Shown here in pieces: positions 10,975 to 57,404 of a DNA stretch of 64,000 nt. The DNA is taken from contig CBDUWU010000001.1 in NCBI GenBank assembly GCA_965371015.1, forward strand, positions 1,368 to 65,367, in the 5' to 3' direction. Both the position numbers and the translations under genes were made by a program. The DNA is from an uncultured bacterium (GTDB taxonomy: Bacteria > Krumholzibacteriota > Krumholzibacteriia > WVZY01 > JAKEHA01). How positions within the stretch are numbered: the stretch's first letter is position 1; the number at the start of each line of letters is the position of its first letter. The notes below the pieces were generated by a model that had not been told where the DNA came from, did no database searches, and was given only the letters and a program-made list of their open reading frames with translations.

Positions 10975-11065
10975 GGAGAGATGCGAGAGCTGGCTTAATC
11001 GGCACGACTGGAAATCGTGTGTATGCGGAAGTGTACCGAGGGTTCGAATCCCTCTCTCTCCGCCA
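10975..11065 (+). tRNA. tRNA-Ser (anticodon GGA), class II with long variable arm
   Basis: GGAGAGA/TCTCTCC acceptor stem, anticodon loop CTGGAAA, T-loop GGTTCGAATCC, 3' GCCA. Confidence 0.85.
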
Positions 11066-11192
11066 TCCATTTATCCCGCGAAACGCCACGCGGGGACTCA
11101 CCCCGACGTGACTCCAAACCCCTTCCGCCCGATTCAGCCGTAACCGCATTTGCGGTCTTGCCCTCCCCCGCTCGATCCGCTATCATTCCCGC

Positions 11193-11282
11193 GGAGAGAT
11201 GCCAGAGCGGTTGAATGGGGCGGTCTCGAAAACCGTTGAGTGCGCAAGTGCTCCGGGGGTTCGAATCCCCCTCTCTCCGCCA
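11193..11282 (+). tRNA. tRNA-Ser (anticodon CGA)
   Basis: near-identical to E. coli tRNA-Ser(CGA): GGAGAGATGCC...GGTCTCGAAAACC...GGGGGTTCGAATCCCCCTCTCTCCGCCA. Confidence 0.85.
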
Positions 11283-11308
11283 TTTTTTTGATATTACCGG
11301 AATACGGT

Positions 11309-11384
11309 GGGGATGTAGCTCAGTTGGGAGAGCACCTCGTTCGCAACGAGGGGGCCGGCGGTTCGAGTCCGCTCATCTCCACCA
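11309..11384 (+). tRNA. tRNA-Ala (anticodon CGC)
   Basis: GGGGATGTAGCTCAGTTGGGAGAGC; G3-U70 Ala identity pair; anticodon loop TTCGCAA; encoded CCA. Confidence 0.85.
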
Positions 11385-11410
11385 TTTGAAATCTGACGCA
11401 GAACTGTTAA

Positions 11411-11692
11411 AGAGATCGTGCTAGACGGGGTGTTAGCGGTACCCTCTTCCCGCAATCCGCTATAGCGGGGTCGAATTCCCTCCCGCGGGCGACCGGGGTC
11501 GATGTTCACGATCGTGGAAGTGGCGTCGATGGTCAGGTCCCGCGCAATGGTCACCCACGAACCCCGTCAGGACCGGAAGGTAGCAGCGGTAACTGGATCT
11601 GATCATGTGATGCGGGGTCACCTGTCCGGAGTTAACCCGCGGTCGTGTCACGGGTCCGGCGTTCAACGGTGGGTGCACGATCTCTTTTTTTT
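11411..11692 (+). ncRNA. ffs: signal recognition particle RNA, large Bacillus-type (~275 nt), with U-tract terminator
   Basis: domain IV motif GTCAGGACCGGAAGGTAGCAGCGGTAA at 11566-11592 (about 20/22 match to bacterial GUCAGGUCCGGAAGGAAGCAGC); 5' AGAGATCGTGC (11411-11421) is exactly complementary to 3' GCACGATCTCT (11675-11685), giving a terminal helix followed by T8; sits immediately upstream of dnaX as in Bacillus. Confidence 0.6.
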
Positions 11693-11716
11693 CACCTGCC
11701 ATTTGTCGGGGGCGCG

Positions 11717-13507
11717 ATGAGCTACGAGGTTCTGGCGAGAAAATGGCGTCCGCTCAAGTTCGACGATGTCGTCGGGCAGGACCACATCACGCGGACGCTC
11801 AAGAAGGCGGTCGAGACGGACCGGGTGTCGCACGCCTACATGCTGGCCGGTCCCAGGGGCTGCGGCAAGACCAGCACGGCGCGCATCCTCGCCCGGGTGA
11901 TCAACTGCGAAACGCCGCCCGGAGATGGCAACCCCTGTAACGAATGTCCGTCCTGCATCGGCGTCATCCGGGGCAACAACCTCGACGTGATGGAAATCGA
12001 CGGTGCCTCCCACACTGGCGTCAGCGAAGTCCGCGACCTGCAGGAGAGCATCGGTTACGTCCCCAGCCAGTCCCGTAACAAGATCTACATCATCGACGAA
12101 GTCCACATGCTGTCGACGCACGCGTTCAACGCGCTCTTGAAGACGCTGGAAGAACCCCCGAATCACGTCTATTTTATTTTCGCCACCACTGCGCCCAACA
12201 AGATACCCGACACGATCAAGTCCCGTTGTCAGCGGCATCACTTCAAGCGAATGGAAATAAAAGAGATAGCCGGGCAACTAAAAAAGATCTGCGACGAGGA
12301 GGGGGTGGCAAGCGACGAAGAGGGGTTGAGACTCCTCGCCCGCAAGGCGGACGGCAGCATGAGGGACGGAACGAGTCTGCTCGATCAGTGCATCACGTCG
12401 TCGGACGGAAACATCACGACCGAATCGGTTCGAGACATCCTGGGACTGATCGACCAGGAGACGGTGTTCGCGTTCATGAGGAGTATCGCGGACGGCGATT
12501 CGACCGGGGCCCTTCGGCATTTGAGCGCGTGCATCGACGAGGGACTCGACGTCCAGGAGCTGTGCGCGGCGCTGTTGGAAGGGTACCGGGACCTGATGCT
12601 GCTGGCCACCCCGGGTGATCTCAGCGACCTGCTCTTTCGCTCCCGGGATGAAATCGAATTGATGCGCGAAATGCTTTCGGTCTACGAGTTGCCGGATCTG
12701 GTTACGATCGTGGAACGGTTGTGCGATGCTGTACCCCGGCTCAAATCGGCTGCCGATCCGAGGATTCAGCTGGAGAGCTTCCTCGTCGATCTTTCGCTGC
12801 TCGACCGACAGGTAGATATCCGCCGGCTCATCACGGACCTCGAGTCGCCCACAGGGGGCAAGGCCCCCGCAGGGGAAGGGGGTGCCGTCACGGGAACAGC
12901 TTCGCCGGCGGCGAGATCACCACGGCCGGGCTCGACAAAAAGAGATGCCTCCCCGGGGGGCGACGCGGGAAGACGGGGAAATGGTGGAGTGGAGCGAGCC
13001 GACGACGGAGAAACGGCGGGGACGGCCACTGTGATGACGCGGGACGAAGGCGCCGGAGCATTCCCGGCAAAAGATGAAAACGTCGCGTCGACGGGAGAAT
13101 TATCTCTGGATACGCACAAGATGCTGGAGCTGTGGGACGGATTCGTTTCGTTCGTCCGGCAGAAGAAGCTCCGCCTGGGCGTGAGCCTGATCTCGGGGAA
13201 GATACACTCGTTCGACGGAGCGACCTTGACGCTGCGCTTTGCCCGCAGTTTCGGTCCGCAAAAGGAACAGGTGATGAAACCGGAGAGCATGGAATATCTG
13301 CGGCGCATGCTGGCGAAGTATTTCGGGCGGGAGATCGACGTGGTGTGTTTCCAGGAAGGCGAGGAACGCGAAGCCCGGCTGGACCAGAAGGTAAGGACCG
13401 CGAAGGCGCCGACCGACCGCCTCCGTGGTATTGCGGAAGAGAAAAAACCGCTGGTGAAGAAGTTGCTCGACGAGTTCGACGGCGAAATCATCCGGTACAA
13501 CCCATGA
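11717..13507 (+). CDS. dnaX: DNA polymerase III subunits gamma/tau
   Basis: MSYEVLARKWRP..., Walker A GPRGCGKTSTARI, zinc module CNECPSCIG, IIDEVHMLS; C-terminal Pro/Gly-rich tau-like extension. Confidence 0.9.
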   Translation: MSYEVLARKWRPLKFDDVVGQDHITRTLKKAVETDRVSHAYMLAGPRGCGKTSTARILARVINCETPPGDGNPCNECPSCIGVIRGNNLDVMEIDGASHTGVSEVRDLQESIGYVPSQSRNKIYIIDEVHMLSTHAFNALLKTLEEPPNHVYFIFATTAPNKIPDTIKSRCQRHHFKRMEIKEIAGQLKKICDEEGVASDEEGLRLLARKADGSMRDGTSLLDQCITSSDGNITTESVRDILGLIDQETVFAFMRSIADGDSTGALRHLSACIDEGLDVQELCAALLEGYRDLMLLATPGDLSDLLFRSRDEIELMREMLSVYELPDLVTIVERLCDAVPRLKSAADPRIQLESFLVDLSLLDRQVDIRRLITDLESPTGGKAPAGEGGAVTGTASPAARSPRPGSTKRDASPGGDAGRRGNGGVERADDGETAGTATVMTRDEGAGAFPAKDENVASTGELSLDTHKMLELWDGFVSFVRQKKLRLGVSLISGKIHSFDGATLTLRFARSFGPQKEQVMKPESMEYLRRMLAKYFGREIDVVCFQEGEEREARLDQKVRTAKAPTDRLRGIAEEKKPLVKKLLDEFDGEIIRYNP

Positions 13508-13830: not shown

Positions 13831-13950
13831 TCACAGACCCGACGTTGAATTTGGATGGGCAGGCCGACGTAATAAGAGCCGGAGGCCCCCGGTGCCGACG
13901 CCAGCAGTCGAGGCGCGGCGGCGGTTATGTCTATAAGAGAAGGAGAGAGA

Positions 13951-14550
13951 ATGGATTACGGATCCGAGACGCTGGGGGCGCTGGTCAAGGCGCTATCGAG
14001 GTTGCCTGGGATCGGTTCCAAAACGGCCCAGCGGCTCGCCCTGTTTCTGCTCAGGGGCAAAAACGAAGAGGCCGAAACCCTCGGACACCTTCTGGCGATC
14101 CTCAAGGACAAGGTCCGGTTCTGTGACACCTGTGGCAGTATTACCGAGATCCAGGAATGTGCAATTTGCACGAATCCCGCCCGGAATCAGGAGCTGATCT
14201 GCGTCGTGGAGGAACCCCAGGACGTGCTAACTATCGAAAAAACAGGACAATACAGAGGGCTTTACCACGTTCTCCACGGTGTGTTGTCTCCGATCGACGG
14301 AGTCACCCCGGATAAGCTCGGCTTCAAGGCCCTGGAGGGGCGCGTACGGGCGGGTGAGGTCAAGGAAGTCATTGTCGCTACGAATCCTACTGTTGAAGGG
14401 GACACGACGGCGCTTTACATCGCAAAATCCCTCGTGTCCGCCCCCTGCACTGTCACGAGACTTGCTAGAGGTCTCCCAATGGGCGGAACCCTCGAATTCG
14501 CCGACGATTTAACCTTGGTGAAAGCGATCGAGCGCAGGGAAAAGCTGTAG
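13951..14550 (+). CDS. recR: recombination protein RecR
   Basis: HhH LPGIGSKTAQRLA, C4 zinc finger CDTCGSITE...CAIC, Toprim domain; GGAGAGAG RBS before ATG 13951. Confidence 0.9.
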   Translation: MDYGSETLGALVKALSRLPGIGSKTAQRLALFLLRGKNEEAETLGHLLAILKDKVRFCDTCGSITEIQECAICTNPARNQELICVVEEPQDVLTIEKTGQYRGLYHVLHGVLSPIDGVTPDKLGFKALEGRVRAGEVKEVIVATNPTVEGDTTALYIAKSLVSAPCTVTRLARGLPMGGTLEFADDLTLVKAIERREKL

Positions 14551-14625
14551 CCGCAGCGAACCGTGCTTCGGCGCGTGTCGTGCCCTGTGCGACAACCGGT
14601 ACCGGATTCGGACTGGAGCGAGTGT

Positions 14626-15123
14626 ATGATAAAGGCTGACTGGACAATTTACGAAGAAGACTACTGGGCCATAAACAGTGTCCTCAAAGAACTCATCGAC
14701 AATTCCAATTCCCAGAGCGTGCTGCTGATAGACAAAACCGGGCAGCTCATCGCCAGCGTAGGCATGGAGCCCGAGTTTGATCTCATGAGCTTCGCCTCGC
14801 TGTGTGCGGCGGATTTCGAAGCCAATGCGCAACTGGCTAATTTGATCGGTGAAAAAGATTTTTCTACGCTGTACCACCAGGGCTCCGACGAGAGCATGTA
14901 CCTGTCAAGAGTGGCGCAGGCGATTATTCTTGTCGTGCTGTTCAACAAGCGTACGACTCTCGGTCTGGTCCGGCTGCGCGTCAAAAAAGCGGTCGAAGGA
15001 CTCAACACGATACTCAACGGTCTTTTCGATAAACTCGAATACGAAAACGAAGACCTCAAGGAATTCGACGCCGAATTTGCCGACGAGCTGAACAAAGAAA
15101 TCGATTCACTTTTCCAGGACTGA
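14626..15123 (+). CDS. mglB: Roadblock/LC7 domain protein, MglB-like GTPase-activating protein
   Basis: ~165 aa Roadblock-type sequence ([16 protein letters not shown]...) directly upstream of and co-oriented with mglA. Confidence 0.7.
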
Positions 15124-15139
15124 CGCAGGGAGCCGGTGC

Positions 15140-15724
15140 ATGTCGCTCATCAATTACTCGTCGCGTGAAATCAACTGCAAGATCGTGTACTACGGCGCTG
15201 GTTTGTGCGGCAAGACCACGAACATCCAGCACGTTTACAACAAGGTCGATCCCGGAACCAAGGGCAAGCTGATCACGCTGGCCACAGAGATGGACCGCAC
15301 GCTGTTCTTTGACTTTCTCCCGCTCGAACTGGGTACCGTCAAGGGATTCAAGACCCGGTTCCACCTCTACACCGTGCCCGGCCAGGTGTACTACGACGCG
15401 TCGCGCAAGCTCATCCTGCGCGGGGTCGACGGTATCGTATTCGTCGCCGACTCGCAGACCGCGCGCTTCGACGCCAATATCGAGAGCCTGTACAACCTCC
15501 ACGACAACCTCGATGAGTACAAGCTCAAGATCGAGGACATACCGTTCGTCATCCAGTACAACAAACGGGACATGCCGGACATCATCACCATGGAAGACCT
15601 CGAGCAGGAGCTCAATCCCGAAGGGTACCCCAGTTACGAGGCCGTGGCCGTCCAGGGCGACGGTGTGTTCGACACGCTCAAGGCCGTGGCCAAAGGCGTT
15701 CTCAAAAAACTTTCCCAGAACTGA
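15140..15724 (+). CDS. mglA: Ras-like small GTPase MglA
   Basis: [16 protein letters not shown]-loop, DTAG-equivalent TVPGQ, NKRD G4 motif; 194 aa. Confidence 0.85.
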
Positions 15725-18193: not shown

Positions 18194-18321
18194 TACTATT
18201 TCCGCGCTGACAAGGCGTTATGTGCTTTCGCCCGACCCCTTGGGACTGGCTGGTTGGGGAGGCGGCGGAAGGTGGGTAGGTGGGTGTAACCAGCCGGTAC
18301 TGTTTCAGAAAGGGGTTTTCA

Positions 18322-19515
18322 ATGTCCAGGAAGAACGCCGAAGACGAAAGGGCCAAATCACTCGAGCTGGCCATCGCAAAAATTGAAAAGCAATACGGCC
18401 AGGGGGCGATCATGCGGTTGGGTGACGGTGGCAGCATCGTTCCCGTCGAAGTTATTCCGACCGGCAGTCTCGCTCTCGACATCGCGCTCGGTGTCGGTGG
18501 TGTGCCGATGGGCCGGATCATCGAAGTGTTCGGGCCGGAAGGGTCCGGCAAGACGACGCTGACGAGTTCGATCGTCGCGCAGGCGCAGAAGAAAGGCGGC
18601 ACGGCCGCATTCGTCGACGCCGAGCACGCGTTCGACATGGCCTACGCCAAAAGAATCGGCGTAGACGTCGACAACCTGCTCATTTCCCAACCCGACACCG
18701 GCGAACAGGCCCTCGAGATCACCGAGATGCTGATTCGCAGTGGCGCGCTCGATGTCATCGTGATCGATTCGGTCGCCGCCCTGGTGCCCGCCGCCGAGAT
18801 CAACGGTGAAATGGGTGACGCACACGTGGGCTTGCAGGCGCGGTTGATGTCGCAGGCCCTCCGCAAACTGACGGGTACGGTGAGCAAGACCAAGACGTGC
18901 CTGATCTTTACCAACCAGATCCGGATGAAGATCGGCGTGATGTTCGGCAGCCCGGAAACCACGTCGGGCGGCAAAGCGCTCAAGTTCTATTCGACGGTGC
19001 GAATGGACATCCGGCGTATCGGCGCGATCAAGGACGGGGACGTCATTACGGGCAACCGGACCAAGGTCAAGGTCGTCAAGAACAAGGTCGCACCGCCGTT
19101 CAAGGTGAGCGAGTTCGACATTATTTACGGAGAGGGCATCAGCTATGAAGGTGACGTCCTGGATATCGGAGCGGACATGGAAGTGGTGAAGAAGAGCGGG
19201 ACCTGGTATTCGTACGGTGACGTCCGTCTCGGTCAGGGCAAGGAAGCCTCCCGGCGGTTCCTCAGGGAAAACACCGACATCACCGAAGAGATCGCGTCCA
19301 GGATCCGCGCGGAGCACGGATTGAACGAGCCCGGCGCAGAAGCCGAGTCCAGGGCTACGCAGGCCCCGGAGGCTACGCAGTCCCCGGATGCGGCGCAGGC
19401 CCCGGAGGCGGCGCAGTCTTCGGAGGCGGCGCAGGCCCCGGATGCGGCGCAGGCCCCGGAAGTTACGCCGCCGTCGAAGAAACGCCCCGGCGCCGCCCGG
19501 ATGAGCAAGCGTTAG
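18322..19515 (+). CDS. recA: recombinase RecA with extended repetitive C-terminal tail
   Basis: [10 protein letters not shown] Walker A, IDSVAAL, full RecA core; AAAGGGG RBS; tail of 6 x (A/T)QAPE(A/D)A. Confidence 0.95.
19357..19464 (+). repeat. 6 x 18-bp imperfect tandem repeat inside recA 3' end
   Basis: acgcaggccccggaggct / acgcagtccccggatgcg / gcgcaggccccggaggcg / gcgcagtcttcggaggcg / gcgcaggccccggatgcg / gcgcaggccccggaagtt. Confidence 0.9.
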
Positions 19516-20157
19516 ATGCCCGATAACGTCATCGAGTTGAAACCGCGCCCCCGGGGACGGGTCACCGTCAAACTCGCCGGGGGGCGGTTTTTTACCATAC
19601 CGCAGGACGCCGTGACGTTCACCGTCGCCGCGGTGGTGTCGGACGAAGACGTATCCAGGTTCGACCGGATGGACCAGTACTTTCGTGGAAAAGACAAGGC
19701 GCACCTTTTGATTTCGCGGCGGATGCGGACGCGGAAACAGGTCGCCGACGCGCTCGACAAGCTGGCCATAGAGGCATCGATACGAAACGGCATCCTGACC
19801 GAGCTCGAAGAAACGGGACTCATCGACGATCTCCGTTTTGCCGGCGAATACGTCCGGATCAAGAGGGACGTAAGGCGGCACGGGCCTTACCGGTTGCGTC
19901 ACGATCTCGGACGCATGGGGGTGACGGGGTCGATCGTCGAGCGCGTTCTGGAAGAGACGTTCGACGTCCCGACACAGGAATCGATGGCACGGGAGCTGGC
20001 CGAGACGCGCGCCGCCGGCTGCCCCGTCGACGAAAAGGCCGCGCGGCGTATCGGCGATTTTCTCAGGCGCAGGGGTTTCGATTACGAGGTCGTGAATAAC
20101 GTGGTCTACGACCTTCTCCACCATTCAAACGTTTCGGACAATGACTACGAATCCTGA
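19516..20157 (+). CDS. recX: regulatory protein RecX
   Basis: immediately follows recA (stop/start abut); 213 aa, helical repeat protein in the conserved recA-recX-alaS arrangement. Confidence 0.75.
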   Translation: MPDNVIELKPRPRGRVTVKLAGGRFFTIPQDAVTFTVAAVVSDEDVSRFDRMDQYFRGKDKAHLLISRRMRTRKQVADALDKLAIEASIRNGILTELEETGLIDDLRFAGEYVRIKRDVRRHGPYRLRHDLGRMGVTGSIVERVLEETFDVPTQESMARELAETRAAGCPVDEKAARRIGDFLRRRGFDYEVVNNVVYDLLHHSNVSDNDYES

Positions 20158-36470: not shown

Positions 36471-36544
36471 TGGGGCGTCGACAAGTGGTAAGTCACAGGG
36501 TTTTGGTCCCTGCATCGGGGGTTCGAATCCTCCCGCCCCAACCA
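36471..36544 (+). tRNA. tRNA-Gln (anticodon TTG)
   Basis: U1-A72 acceptor pair (TGGGGCG/CGCCCCA), anticodon loop TTTTGGT, T-loop GGTTCGAATCC, encoded CCA. Confidence 0.8.
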
Positions 36545-49616: not shown

Positions 49617-51161
49617 TTGACCGTTAGATTCGAAAGACGAGTCATGGAAAAGATATCTTCTTATAATATAGCAGTTTCTGTTGATACCTTAAGGGAAGGC
49701 TTTAATTCCGGCCAACTGGTGCCCGCGCTGCACGGGCCGCTGCAGTCTCTGCTGCCGCGGGTAACGCGCGCCGCTGCCGAAGCGCCGGCGTCCGTCTACC
49801 TGTTCTCCGCGGGAGATGGCGCCGAGGTCCGGGATCTGTTCGGATTTGCGCTTGTCGCCGCGCTGTCGCAGCAGATCCCGACGGCGTTGCTCGTCGATTG
49901 CGGATTTCTGGCGGTCGGCCTCAGCGGAGTCGTGCCGCAGAAAGACGCGCTCGGATTCCTCGACCTCCTGCTCTACGGGAGTTCGCTCGGCGTTATCACC
50001 CAGAAAACGAACGGCGGTGTCCACGTGGTGGGGGCGGGGTCCTTTCCGGTAACCAAGAATATGCCGTTCGTACTCAACGCTTTTGAGGAGGCGTCGCGCC
50101 GTCTCGTGTCGCAGTGTCGCTGCGCGGTCTTCTGCGGCCCCCTGTATAACGACGAAGGAGCACTCCACCCGCTGATCGGAGCCGTCGACGTACCGATTAT
50201 GGTGAGACTCGCCGGAACCGGGGGCTCCATCGTCGATCCTATCGAAGAGCAGATCTCCTCGAAGTGGGACTCGGAGTTGCTCAGCGTAAGAGTCACGCCC
50301 CGCGATGCCGCCGCCGCGCCGCCGCCAGCAACCGTGGCTACCGGAGTGGTCGACGAGAAACCCGTCGTCCCTGCGACTCCGGCGGCCGCGCCTCCATCGC
50401 AACATGAATTCGAGGAGATAGTCCCGCCCGCGCCACCGAGACCCGCCCGGGTCGAGACACCGAAACCCGCCCCGGCCCGGACACCGAAACCCGCCCCGGC
50501 CGAGGTTGCCCCGGTCGCTGATGTCGAATTCGAAGAGGAATCAACCGCGTCGCAGTACAAAGAGAAGAAATACTCATCGTTGGTTCCAAAAATCGCAACT
50601 GCTGTTGTCGCAACGGTTGTAGTCGTTTTCCTCGTGTGGTGGTTCAATGAGGAACGGACCGGCGGAGGCGGATCGGAACCTCCGCAGACGACAGGCTCGT
50701 CCGCTGTTTCGGATGTGGATGACGCCGGAGCCGAAACACCGACGGTGGTGGTGGTGGACAGCACGGTGGTGGACAGCACGGTGGTGGACGGCACGGCGGC
50801 GGTTGCCGTTGCCGCGGACACGACGGCCGCGCAGCCGGAACCGGAGCCGACCGGCGCGGCCGGCGCGGTCTCTTCCGACGACATACTCGTGATGGATGAC
50901 CTCGAAAACAACTGGGGTGGACAATACCTCATCCACATCAGTTCGTTCCGCGATTCGGGGAAAGCCCGAACCGAGGTCGGACAATTGACGTCCCGCGGAT
51001 TTTCGGTGTTCATCGTGTACCTGAATCTTGGTGCCAAAGGTTCGTGGTACCGCGTTTACGCCGGTCCCGTAGCGACACGCGAGGACGCGCGAAACATGAA
51101 AAAACTTCTGGACGATACGCCGGGGGTGCGTTTTACTCGCATATCGCAAATCGCGAATTAG
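49617..51161 (+). CDS. SPOR-domain protein with N-terminal degenerate ParA/MinD-like domain, proline-rich repeat linker and TM segment
   Basis: C-terminal YLIHISSFRDSGKARTEVGQLTSRGFSVFIVYLNLGAKGSWYRVYAGPVATREDARNMKKLLDD is SPOR-like; N-domain resembles ParA/MinD fold but with SAGDGAEV in place of Walker A; TM ATAVVATVVVVFLVWWF; start codon uncertain (49617 or 49644). Confidence 0.6.
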   Translation: MTVRFERRVMEKISSYNIAVSVDTLREGFNSGQLVPALHGPLQSLLPRVTRAAAEAPASVYLFSAGDGAEVRDLFGFALVAALSQQIPTALLVDCGFLAVGLSGVVPQKDALGFLDLLLYGSSLGVITQKTNGGVHVVGAGSFPVTKNMPFVLNAFEEASRRLVSQCRCAVFCGPLYNDEGALHPLIGAVDVPIMVRLAGTGGSIVDPIEEQISSKWDSELLSVRVTPRDAAAAPPPATVATGVVDEKPVVPATPAAAPPSQHEFEEIVPPAPPRPARVETPKPAPARTPKPAPAEVAPVADVEFEEESTASQYKEKKYSSLVPKIATAVVATVVVVFLVWWFNEERTGGGGSEPPQTTGSSAVSDVDDAGAETPTVVVVDSTVVDSTVVDGTAAVAVAADTTAAQPEPEPTGAAGAVSSDDILVMDDLENNWGGQYLIHISSFRDSGKARTEVGQLTSRGFSVFIVYLNLGAKGSWYRVYAGPVATREDARNMKKLLDDTPGVRFTRISQIAN

Positions 51162-55931: not shown

Positions 55932-55939
55932 ATCATATG

Positions 55940-56059
<120 letters not shown>

Positions 56060-56234
56060 TCATGGCAGGCGTACACGGCGCGCCCCTTTCCGGGGGCGGT
56101 GCAGGTTGACGTCCCCTCGGGGATGTCCGCCGGCTTATATATCCCTGTATTCTCCCTCGATTTCCCCCGATCGTTACCGGTAAAAGCCGCACAACTTGTA
56201 ATACGACCACGCGCCGGCCCCGACGCCGGCCGAT

Positions 56235-57404
56235 TTGAACATGGAGTATCAACCCGAAATCACCACGGGCAACGCCGGCACCACGTCGGGACGCGTCGAC
56301 GACGTGTTCATGACGAGGGCGCTCGAGCTCGCCTGGCAGGCCGCCGGGAAAACCAATCCCAACCCCCTCGTCGGTGCGGTCGTCGTCAAGGAAGGCACGG
56401 TCGTCGGCGAAGGATTTCATCACCGCTGCGGTGAGGCGCACGCCGAGATAGAGGCGTTGTTGCAGGCGGGTGAGGGAGCGAGGGACGCGACCATGTACGT
56501 CACCCTCGAGCCATGCGCCCACCATGGCCGGACCCCGCCGTGCGCCGGGCAACTGGTGGCGGCGGGAATACGCCGTGTCGTAATGCCGACAAGCGACCCC
56601 GATCCGAAGGTTCGCGGACGGGGCGTCGAAGTGCTTCGGTCAGCGGGGATTCGAGTCGACACCGGGTGCGCCGAGGCGGCCGCCATTGCCACCAATATCG
56701 CTTATTACAAGCAGCGCCTGGGGCTCGGTGCCACCGTTGTACTCAAGATGGCGGTCACGATCGACGGGAAGATCGCTTCCGCGCCCGGTCGGCGGGACCG
56801 GGTCAGTTCGGATGCGTCTCATCAATACGTCCACCGGTTGCGCGCGAACAGCGATGGTATCGCCGTCGGGATCAATACCGTGAAGACAGATGACCCCCGG
56901 CTCGACTGCCGTCTGATCGATTGCGGCGCCGCTCCGGTGCCCGTCGTCCTGGACGGGAATCTCGATCTGCCCGCCGACAACCGGTGGGCGAGGGAAGGAC
57001 GCCCCTTTGTGGTCGTCGGTGACGCTGCCGCCGGCGCCGCCGGCGCCAGAGCCGATGCCTTGCGCAAGGGCGGGGGGCGTGTGCTCTCGTGCGCGTCGGA
57101 CGGAGAAGGCCGGGTGGATGTCGCCCTGGCGACGCAGTTGTTGTCCGGCGCCGGCTTCGAGAGGATTCTGGTCGAGGGTGGAGGGCAGTTGTTTACGAGT
57201 TTTCTTCGCGCCGGATTATGGGATGCCATGTTTCTTTTCCATGCGCCGAGGGCATTCGGGAGCGGTGGGGTCCCGGTCTTCACGGACTCCGACCCGGTCG
57301 ATCCGGACACGGTCACCGTCGACGCGGTCCGGCTCGAAGGCGACTTTCTGCACAGGCATGTCAACCGCCGTACGTACGGTGAAATCGTTGCGAAATTGAA
57401 ATAA
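56235..57404 (+). CDS. ribD: bifunctional riboflavin biosynthesis protein RibD (deaminase/reductase); start uncertain (56235, 56241 or 56310)
   Basis: deaminase HAEIEAL and LEPCAHHGRTPPC; C-terminal RibD reductase domain ...VEGGGQL. Confidence 0.85.
   Translation: MNMEYQPEITTGNAGTTSGRVDDVFMTRALELAWQAAGKTNPNPLVGAVVVKEGTVVGEGFHHRCGEAHAEIEALLQAGEGARDATMYVTLEPCAHHGRTPPCAGQLVAAGIRRVVMPTSDPDPKVRGRGVEVLRSAGIRVDTGCAEAAAIATNIAYYKQRLGLGATVVLKMAVTIDGKIASAPGRRDRVSSDASHQYVHRLRANSDGIAVGINTVKTDDPRLDCRLIDCGAAPVPVVLDGNLDLPADNRWAREGRPFVVVGDAAAGAAGARADALRKGGGRVLSCASDGEGRVDVALATQLLSGAGFERILVEGGGQLFTSFLRAGLWDAMFLFHAPRAFGSGGVPVFTDSDPVDPDTVTVDAVRLEGDFLHRHVNRRTYGEIVAKLK

Follow-up and report, generated by a model that had tools for sequence, protein, structure and literature searches.

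The 64-kb stretch of uncultured-bacterium DNA analysed here (the window) carries a recA gene whose product ends in a long tail, made up of a tandemly repeated, low-complexity spacer followed by a short basic C-terminal peptide (the tip). The parts of the locus, with the evidence that defines each of them, are these:

18322-19515, + strand: recA coding sequence, 397 amino acids (aa) plus a TAG stop (open reading frame (ORF) list, Pfam, structure alignment).
19150-19317, + strand: RecA C-terminal domain (RecA_C, PF21096), residues 277-332, the last folded part (Pfam, AlphaFold2).
19318-19353, + strand: proximal tail, in which 19336-19353 encode AEAESR, a degenerate repeat unit; relatives have 21 additional bases here (repeat search, alignment).
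19354-19461, + strand: six in-frame 18-bp tandem units, A(T/A)Q(A/S)(P/S)(E/D), a net-acidic spacer predicted to be disordered (Tandem Repeats Finder, shuffle test, AlphaFold2, arrays of relatives).
19462-19476, + strand: VTPPS, a degenerate last unit and junction to the tip, conserved in the species cluster (sequence comparison).
19477-19512, + strand: conserved polybasic C-terminal tip, 12 residues, net charge +6 (right-aligned residue frequencies, 125 homologues).
19516-20157, + strand: recX, 213 aa (Pfam RecX_HTH1/2/3).

By its matches the protein is unambiguously RecA. The Pfam RecA family (PF00154) covers residues 12-274 with E=1.6e-133 over the entire model (positions 1-262 of 262), RecA_C follows with E=1e-22 (model positions 1-56 of 57), and residues ~7-337 align to the E. 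coli and mycobacterial RecA structures. The ATPase core, with its Walker A/B motifs and L1/L2 loops, is present, GPEGSGKT and a second stretch of 20 residues aligning with E. coli RecA, and the C-terminal domain expected of a bacterial RecA recombinase is confidently modelled, the AlphaFold2 prediction (from an 86-sequence alignment) keeping a predicted local distance difference test score (pLDDT) of about 95 through residue ~330. Translation is taken to start at the ATG at 18322 (MSRKN...), in agreement with all relatives (MSRKNAEDE in the homologues), and a GTG further upstream at 18280 was rejected as the start because relatives begin at the equivalent of ATG 18322. The family PF27531, which is listed for most homologues and was considered as a possible tail family, turned out to be MT3502_N, a weak match that lies before RecA_C and hence upstream of the tail.

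Past RecA_C the tail comprises 65 aa (residues 333-397, 19318-19512), a net excess of ~40 aa over the 25-residue tail of E. coli RecA. The original prediction for this DNA, made from the letters alone, had proposed an extension of ~70 aa built from six 18-bp tandem units that encode a near-perfect hexapeptide repeat. The units themselves were recovered: Tandem Repeats Finder reports a period of 18 bp with 5.7 copies, 84% matches and a score of 150 at 19358-19460, the strongest of only four tandem arrays in the window, and the six units are in frame. Nucleotide identity at a lag of 18 reaches 0.844 in the array, the maximum for any 108-nt stretch of the window (mean 0.293, standard deviation 0.056), and none of 20000 codon shuffles of the tail attained that value, the highest giving 0.61. 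As for the rest of that description, the tail has 65 aa and not ~70, of which only 36 are repeat, and 'near-perfect' overstates a hexapeptide in which four of the six positions vary. Further degenerate units flank the array on both sides (AEAESR at 19336-19353 and VTPPSK at 19462-19479), and the array can be read equally well as three 36-bp units, 36 bp being the period found in relatives. The RNA fold of the repeat region is no better than that of shuffled sequence (z=-1.0), and an RNA structure or attenuator within the repeat was rejected on this score.

Judged by its residues, the tail is bipartite: a low-complexity, net-acidic spacer and then a conserved polybasic C-terminal peptide. The spacer (residues 333-385) carries a charge of -8 and is rich in Ala, Pro, Glu, Ser and Gln; the tail as a whole contains A18, P9, E7, S6 and Q6 among its 65 residues, together with seven basic residues, for a net charge of about -2. 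The tail had been described earlier as a lengthened form of the acidic autoinhibitory segment of RecA. That description is not borne out, as it overlooked the basic peptide of charge +5/+6, conserved in the clade, with which the tail ends. The whole tail is predicted to be disordered: pLDDT falls below 50, with no secondary structure, over residues 347-397 (34-41 in the repeat units), the tail lies on the disordered side of the charge-hydropathy boundary, its sequence entropy is 2.5-3.3 bits vs 4.0 for the core, and solved RecA structures give no alignment past about residue 337-354. A protein search with the tail alone gave no scoring match, probably owing to its low complexity.

How far these features extend was judged from the best 120 database homologues together with the members of the window's own cluster, 125 sequences in all (the clade set), with tails cut by means of a GQGKE motif anchor. 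The 120 homologues are 68-92% identical to the window protein and 372-443 aa long, and those that are named derive from metagenome-assembled genomes (MAGs) of Candidatus Krumholzibacteria or Latescibacteria. The tails of the 125 sequences are all long (39-78 aa, median 51; none below 39 aa). The linkers cannot be aligned with one another; their composition is A27 G11 P10 E8 S8 D7 T6 K6 (in %), and their charge, which ranges from -8 to +4, is net-negative in 93 of the 125 sequences. The absence of any tail shorter than 39 aa suggests that composition and minimum length, and not exact sequence, are constrained.

At the tip the pattern is of another kind. The last 12 residues have a charge of at least +3 in 118 of the 125 sequences (median +5), and the tip alignment gives a consensus, [KR][KRG][KR]-x-[GAS]-x-A-R-[VAM]-[GSA]-[KR]-x-COOH, with a near-invariant Arg. 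Lys and Arg replace each other at positions -2 (57 K, 52 R) and -10 to -12, while the final residue varies (Q 34, P 32, K 28, R 21). The tip codons of five clade lineages are unrelated at the nucleotide level; conservation thus acts on the peptide and not on the DNA, and the ribosome-binding site of recX was rejected as its cause for the same reason. Within the clade set, clear tandem peptide repeats were found only in the window's species cluster. The extension that had been thought lineage-specific is therefore lineage-specific only in its repeat make-up, the long tail itself being present in 125 of 125 orthologues. From this distribution, the long tail with its tip is ancestral to the clade and the repeat is a recent, local way to build the spacer.

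Within the window's species the spacer can be followed from strain to strain. The window RecA falls in a 90%-identity cluster of eight members, one of which (P0126, 50 aa) is not RecA-like and was set aside; no contig was on record with the exact sequence of the window RecA. At the DNA level we compared the window with five other contigs from independent samples, so that the same-species alleles sampled amount to a handful, all from metagenome assemblies. The first 1011 nt of recA are 97.2-100% identical among these contigs and contain no indels. The tail-coding segments, from codon 333 to the stop, measure 198, 201, 213 or 237 nt, which gives tails of 65, 66, 70 and 78 aa, and their repeat architectures are as follows:

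Window: 18 bp x 5.7.
L082, L084 and L085: 36 bp x 2.0 (L082 by Tandem Repeats Finder; L084 and L085 deduced by alignment and from the sequences of their tails).
L081: 36 bp x 3.0.
L083: 42 bp x 2.2.

The clearest case is that of L081 and L082, whose cores are 99.7% identical and whose tails differ in that L081 has the L082 tail plus one exact 36-bp unit. The 12-residue super-unit of the window corresponds to AMAPEVAQSSPV in the relatives, with about 28 of the 36 bases in common when read off the sequences, and 21 nt that the relatives have early in the tail are missing from the window. Every length difference is a multiple of three, the tip is in frame in all alleles, and strains with a remodelled spacer still agree at 94-100% of the last 48 nt. 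Thus the slippage-type variation in repeat number foreseen in the original prediction is seen among related strains, in four architectures and one pair separated by a single exact unit; tails of 65-78 aa that are predicted disordered are likewise the opposite of a fixed-length extension aligned to a structured domain. As assembled in these contigs, the repeat is demonstrably unstable in length. This polymorphism among very close strains is what one expects of a phase-variable locus; the units of 18, 36 and 42 bp, on the other hand, do not switch a reading frame or promoter spacing on and off. Since all length changes are in frame, the repeat is not a frameshift switch.

We propose, with a probability that we put at roughly two in three, that the repeat forms a slippage-built spacer, constrained in composition and minimum length and not in sequence, that serves as the tether of a functional basic tip. 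Within the window's species, in-frame slippage of the 18/36-bp unit, or its unequal exchange, would have shaped and reshaped this spacer, so that near-identical strains would come to vary in unit structure and copy number and the tip would stay constant. The repeat block may then serve only as a flexible, negatively charged tether, the functional payload being the tip. Most probably the tip would make an electrostatic contact, for which DNA is our preferred partner, with the tip as an extra tethered site for nucleation or duplex capture; by analogy, we would place this DNA contact ahead of an acidic partner or surface, with filament bridging last. From general polymer considerations, a tether of ~53 residues would be expected to let a peptide that emerges from the outward-facing C-terminal domain extend as far as the groove of the filament, an incoming duplex or an adjacent filament. 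The acidic spacer may in addition retain part of an E. coli-type autoinhibition. A change in copy number would shift reach and charge gradually, without on/off switching, and we infer that regulation could be tunable through repeat length in this sense.

Several observations weigh against this proposal. AlphaFold2 did not dock the tip anywhere, and a search of the PDB with a profile of 50 tips returned nothing at E values up to 10. The Gly and Ala at particular positions of the tip suggest specific docking over non-specific electrostatics, and small residues at fixed positions mean that the partner could be a protein rather than DNA. The tip motif occurs in no other ORF of the window. The strain-level alleles come from short-read metagenome assemblies. 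Lastly, recX is stop-start coupled to recA in every clade lineage examined, coinciding with the tip, which makes a role of the nascent peptide inseparable from one of the mature protein. Of related searches, the Arg-rich ends of many other ORFs in the window belong to spurious high-GC ORFs, and a back-translated tip pattern gave 0 and 3 chance matches, in non-RecA ORFs, in metagenome contigs of a collection that does not contain this lineage.

Nearly all that is known of the RecA tail concerns E. coli, where loss of the acidic tail strengthens DNA binding and lessens the need for Mg2+. The window tail resembles it in its position directly after the C-terminal domain, in being (by prediction) disordered, in a spacer that is likewise net-negative, with many Ser, Thr, Glu and Asp residues, and in the recX gene that follows, RecX being a protein that acts on RecA filaments. 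Of the last 17 residues of the E. coli tail seven are acidic and none is positive, and the tail is regarded as an autoregulatory flap whose removal raises the binding of double-stranded DNA (PMC6547424). In contrast, the window tail has 65 aa vs about 25, a tandem repeat, an end of charge +6 where the E. coli tail has no positive residue at all, and a net charge of about -2 vs -7. So whereas the disordered segment after the C-terminal domain is there (pLDDT <50, residues 347-397), it is not the short one of about 17-25 residues free of basic ones, having 65 aa of which the last 12 carry +6.

Closer parallels in design, by analogy and not by homology, are found in two unrelated proteins. SSB has a 56-residue disordered linker and a conserved nine-residue tip that recruits partners (PMC7145534); it shares with the window RecA a folded DNA-binding core, a variable low-complexity linker of ~50 aa and a short conserved terminal peptide, and differs in protein family and in that its tip is acidic where that of RecA is basic. 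FtsZ, a filament-forming nucleoside triphosphatase whose short, charged C-terminus sits beyond a disordered linker that varies in length, offers a plausible model for a basic tip, in that the net charge of its C-terminus governs the association between filaments, a net positive charge promoting lateral bundling (PMC4835091). It too belongs to an unrelated family, and bundling of RecA by the tip is purely hypothetical. In both the SSB-like and the FtsZ-like sense the window tail has the makings of this module, a variable linker carrying a conserved terminal peptide.

Basic RecA ends are not confined to the clade. In a contrast set of 80 genomes from other phyla, drawn from a RecA scan of a genome collection that was dominated by generic RecA motifs and yielded no close relatives, tails have a median length of 21 aa and a maximum of 53, and 45 of the 80 end acidic, among them the alpha- and gamma-proteobacterial RecAs. 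Fourteen of the 80 reach a last-12 charge of at least +3, after tails of 26-53 aa, and the phyla with such ends are Myxococcota, Bdellovibrionota, Eisenbacteria, Zixibacteria, Binatia and UBP2 (for example in L023, L036, L055, L065, L072, L079, L080, L034 and L029). Their tips differ from that of the clade in lacking its motif (...G-x-A-R-[VA]-x-[KR]-x) and usually have no recX next to them. RecA1 and RecA2 of M. xanthus have been described as having more basic residues and a higher isoelectric point than E. coli RecA (bioRxiv 10.1101/766055). Basic-ended tails may be a widespread, little-studied class. Our literature searches found no paper on tandem repeats in the RecA tail or on a conserved basic RecA C-terminal peptide, and none analysing the basic-ended tails of other phyla. 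One RecA of the contrast set (L032) has a short ADK-type tandem repeat in its tail, spotted by eye in a set that was not systematically scanned for repeats. A Lys/Ala-rich C-terminus in Streptomyces RecA found no confirmation here, and the single 'Streptomyces' locus compared ends acidic.

The most serious alternative to the tethered tip is one that keeps closer to E. coli: the tail would be an enlarged acidic autoinhibitory segment, and its slippage-driven copy number an adaptive rheostat for DNA binding and for sensitivity to RecX and DinI. The spacer of the window is the most acidic of the clade, at -8, strains do differ in how many units they have and how these are built, and the acidic tail of E. 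coli RecA is autoinhibitory (PMC6547424), all of which such a rheostat would lead one to expect. However, most clade members have tails of similar length without any repeat, linker charge ranges from -8 to +4 so that strong acidity is not conserved, and the idea passes over the element that is conserved, namely the basic tip. We therefore regard the rheostat as unlikely.

A different possibility arises from the junction with recX. The recX ATG (19516) stands directly after the recA TAG, and alaS comes next; the order pgpA-cinA-thpR(LigT)-recA-recX-alaS is kept in every clade locus examined. The recA stop and the recX ATG abut (TAG|ATG or TAA|ATG) in L089, L092 and the window, they share one base (TAATG) in L091, and L090 likewise has an in-frame ATG immediately after the stop, the gene caller having put the recX start 48 nt too far downstream. 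Where the genes abut they are in the same frame, so that read-through of the stop codon would fuse RecX to the RecA tail. Translational coupling of recX to recA is likely across the clade, to judge from these arrangements, and the stop/start junctions suggest an obligatory coupling by termination and reinitiation. The immediate proximity of recX had been singled out as unusual; the adjacency is as stated, and it is ordinary for recA, in a gene order conserved throughout the clade.

The tip might on this basis act in cis, as a nascent peptide or as an RNA or DNA signal that modulates recA termination and recX reinitiation, the mature tail having no role. The abutting or overlapping junctions in 5 of 5 clade lineages examined would fit, as would the tips that end in Pro (32 of 125) and the polybasic ends that often read ...RARP or ...ARAGR, given that a C-terminal Pro slows termination in E. 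coli. We take these tips to resemble loosely the ...IRAGP arrest motif of SecM, as a lead only. Yet the nucleotides of the tip are not conserved between lineages and contain no common Shine-Dalgarno-like element, the RNA fold is as unremarkable as given above (z=-1.0), neither the stop codon nor the last residue is constant, basic-ended RecA tails occur in Myxococcota and other phyla without an adjacent recX, and the retention of a spacer of at least 39 aa would be left unexplained. An action in cis thus seems to us distinctly improbable.

That the entire tail with its tip is functionless, a product of neutral drift in low-complexity sequence, is an idea to which the spacer lends itself, being unalignable across the clade, remodelled within a species and predicted disordered. 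It founders on the tip, which is kept in 118 of 125 sequences with charge-preserving exchanges of Lys and Arg and a near-invariant Arg while the adjoining spacer decays, and on the absence of any clade tail below 39 aa, and we give it little credence. Lastly, the repeat or its copy number could be an artefact, since all sequences are MAG or metagenome contigs and repeats are known to mislead assemblers, but a 108-bp array is expected to be shorter than typical reads, its units differ from one another in a way that aids unique placement, and in five independent assemblies, made from different samples, a homologous array occupies this position with its frame kept and its flanks intact, which makes this the least credible explanation of all.

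Returning to the tethered tip, we would go further only tentatively, with a suggestion that we hold to be rather doubtful as a whole. The clade may have exchanged the acidic RecA C-terminus for a disordered spacer of ~40-65 residues in the manner of SSB or FtsZ, bearing a polybasic tethered peptide that binds DNA or bridges filaments, and thereby altered nucleation, bundling or control by RecX; polymorphism of the spacer repeat would then produce strain-level variation in reach, and other phyla would possibly have their own versions.

The interest of the locus lies in the fact that RecA is regulated from within by its C-terminal tail and that knowledge of this tail comes almost wholly from E. 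coli, where the tail is short, acidic and free of basic residues. A whole clade has the opposite terminal charge on a much longer tether, and in one species the tether is evolutionarily fluid and the tip fixed, which amounts to a natural experiment on what a disordered tail contributes to a recombinase filament. A variable spacer with a constant tip also probes how far the acidic-flap model holds among bacteria at large. If the tip does bind DNA or the filament, this would be a new regulatory design for a textbook protein; if not, the locus would be a tidy case of tandem-repeat-driven variation in the disordered region of an essential housekeeping gene. Variation in the length of coding tandem repeats correlates with disordered regions in yeast (bioRxiv 10.1101/339663), and the in-frame copy-number polymorphism seen here is similarly confined to a disordered region, as slippage would give, with the difference that it concerns the recombinase itself, in an uncultured bacterium. 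A tandem repeat is thus ordinary for a disordered region, and it is the clade-wide design of spacer plus basic tip that is of more interest.

The window holds a second protein of this repetitive kind. It is a SPOR-domain protein (49617-51161, + strand; Pfam SPOR, E=5.8e-11, residues 435-498) whose low-complexity middle contains two coding tandem repeats, one Pro/Ala/Lys-rich (TPKPAPA...; 24 bp x 3.4, 50423-50504) and one encoding VVDST (15 bp x 3.1, 50750-50796). In-frame repeats in disordered segments are therefore not confined to recA in this genome.

Around recA itself, the ATG is preceded at a distance of 7-13 nt by AAAGGGG, a purine-rich ribosome-binding site in the upstream region (18194-18321); no LexA/SOS box palindrome was obvious by eye in this interval, and a scan of the + strand found no sigma-70-like promoter there. 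About 60 nt inside recX is a terminator-like hairpin with a run of six T (TCGCCGGGGGGCGG TTTTTT, 19574-19597, + strand), probably a coding by-product, as the T-run comes from the codons of the conserved GGRFF of RecX. Between recR (Toprim_4, RecR_HhH, RecR_C) and the cinA-recA cluster lies an MglB/MglA-like pair, which consists of a Roadblock/LC7 protein and an Arf-like small GTPase; together with recR it takes up 13927-15724 (+ strand). Further upstream, at 10975-11680 (+ strand), genes for tRNA-Ser(GGA), tRNA-Ser(CGA) and tRNA-Ala(CGC) stand directly before a large bacterial signal recognition particle (SRP) RNA (RF01854, 195 bits), and the 620-aa ORF after the SRP RNA (11645-13507) may be a dnaX-like gene. 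Elsewhere in the window are a tRNA-Gln(TTG) gene at 36471-36544 and a flavin mononucleotide (FMN) riboswitch (RF00050, 117 bits) at 55937-56062 (+ strand), upstream of an ORF at 56235-57404.

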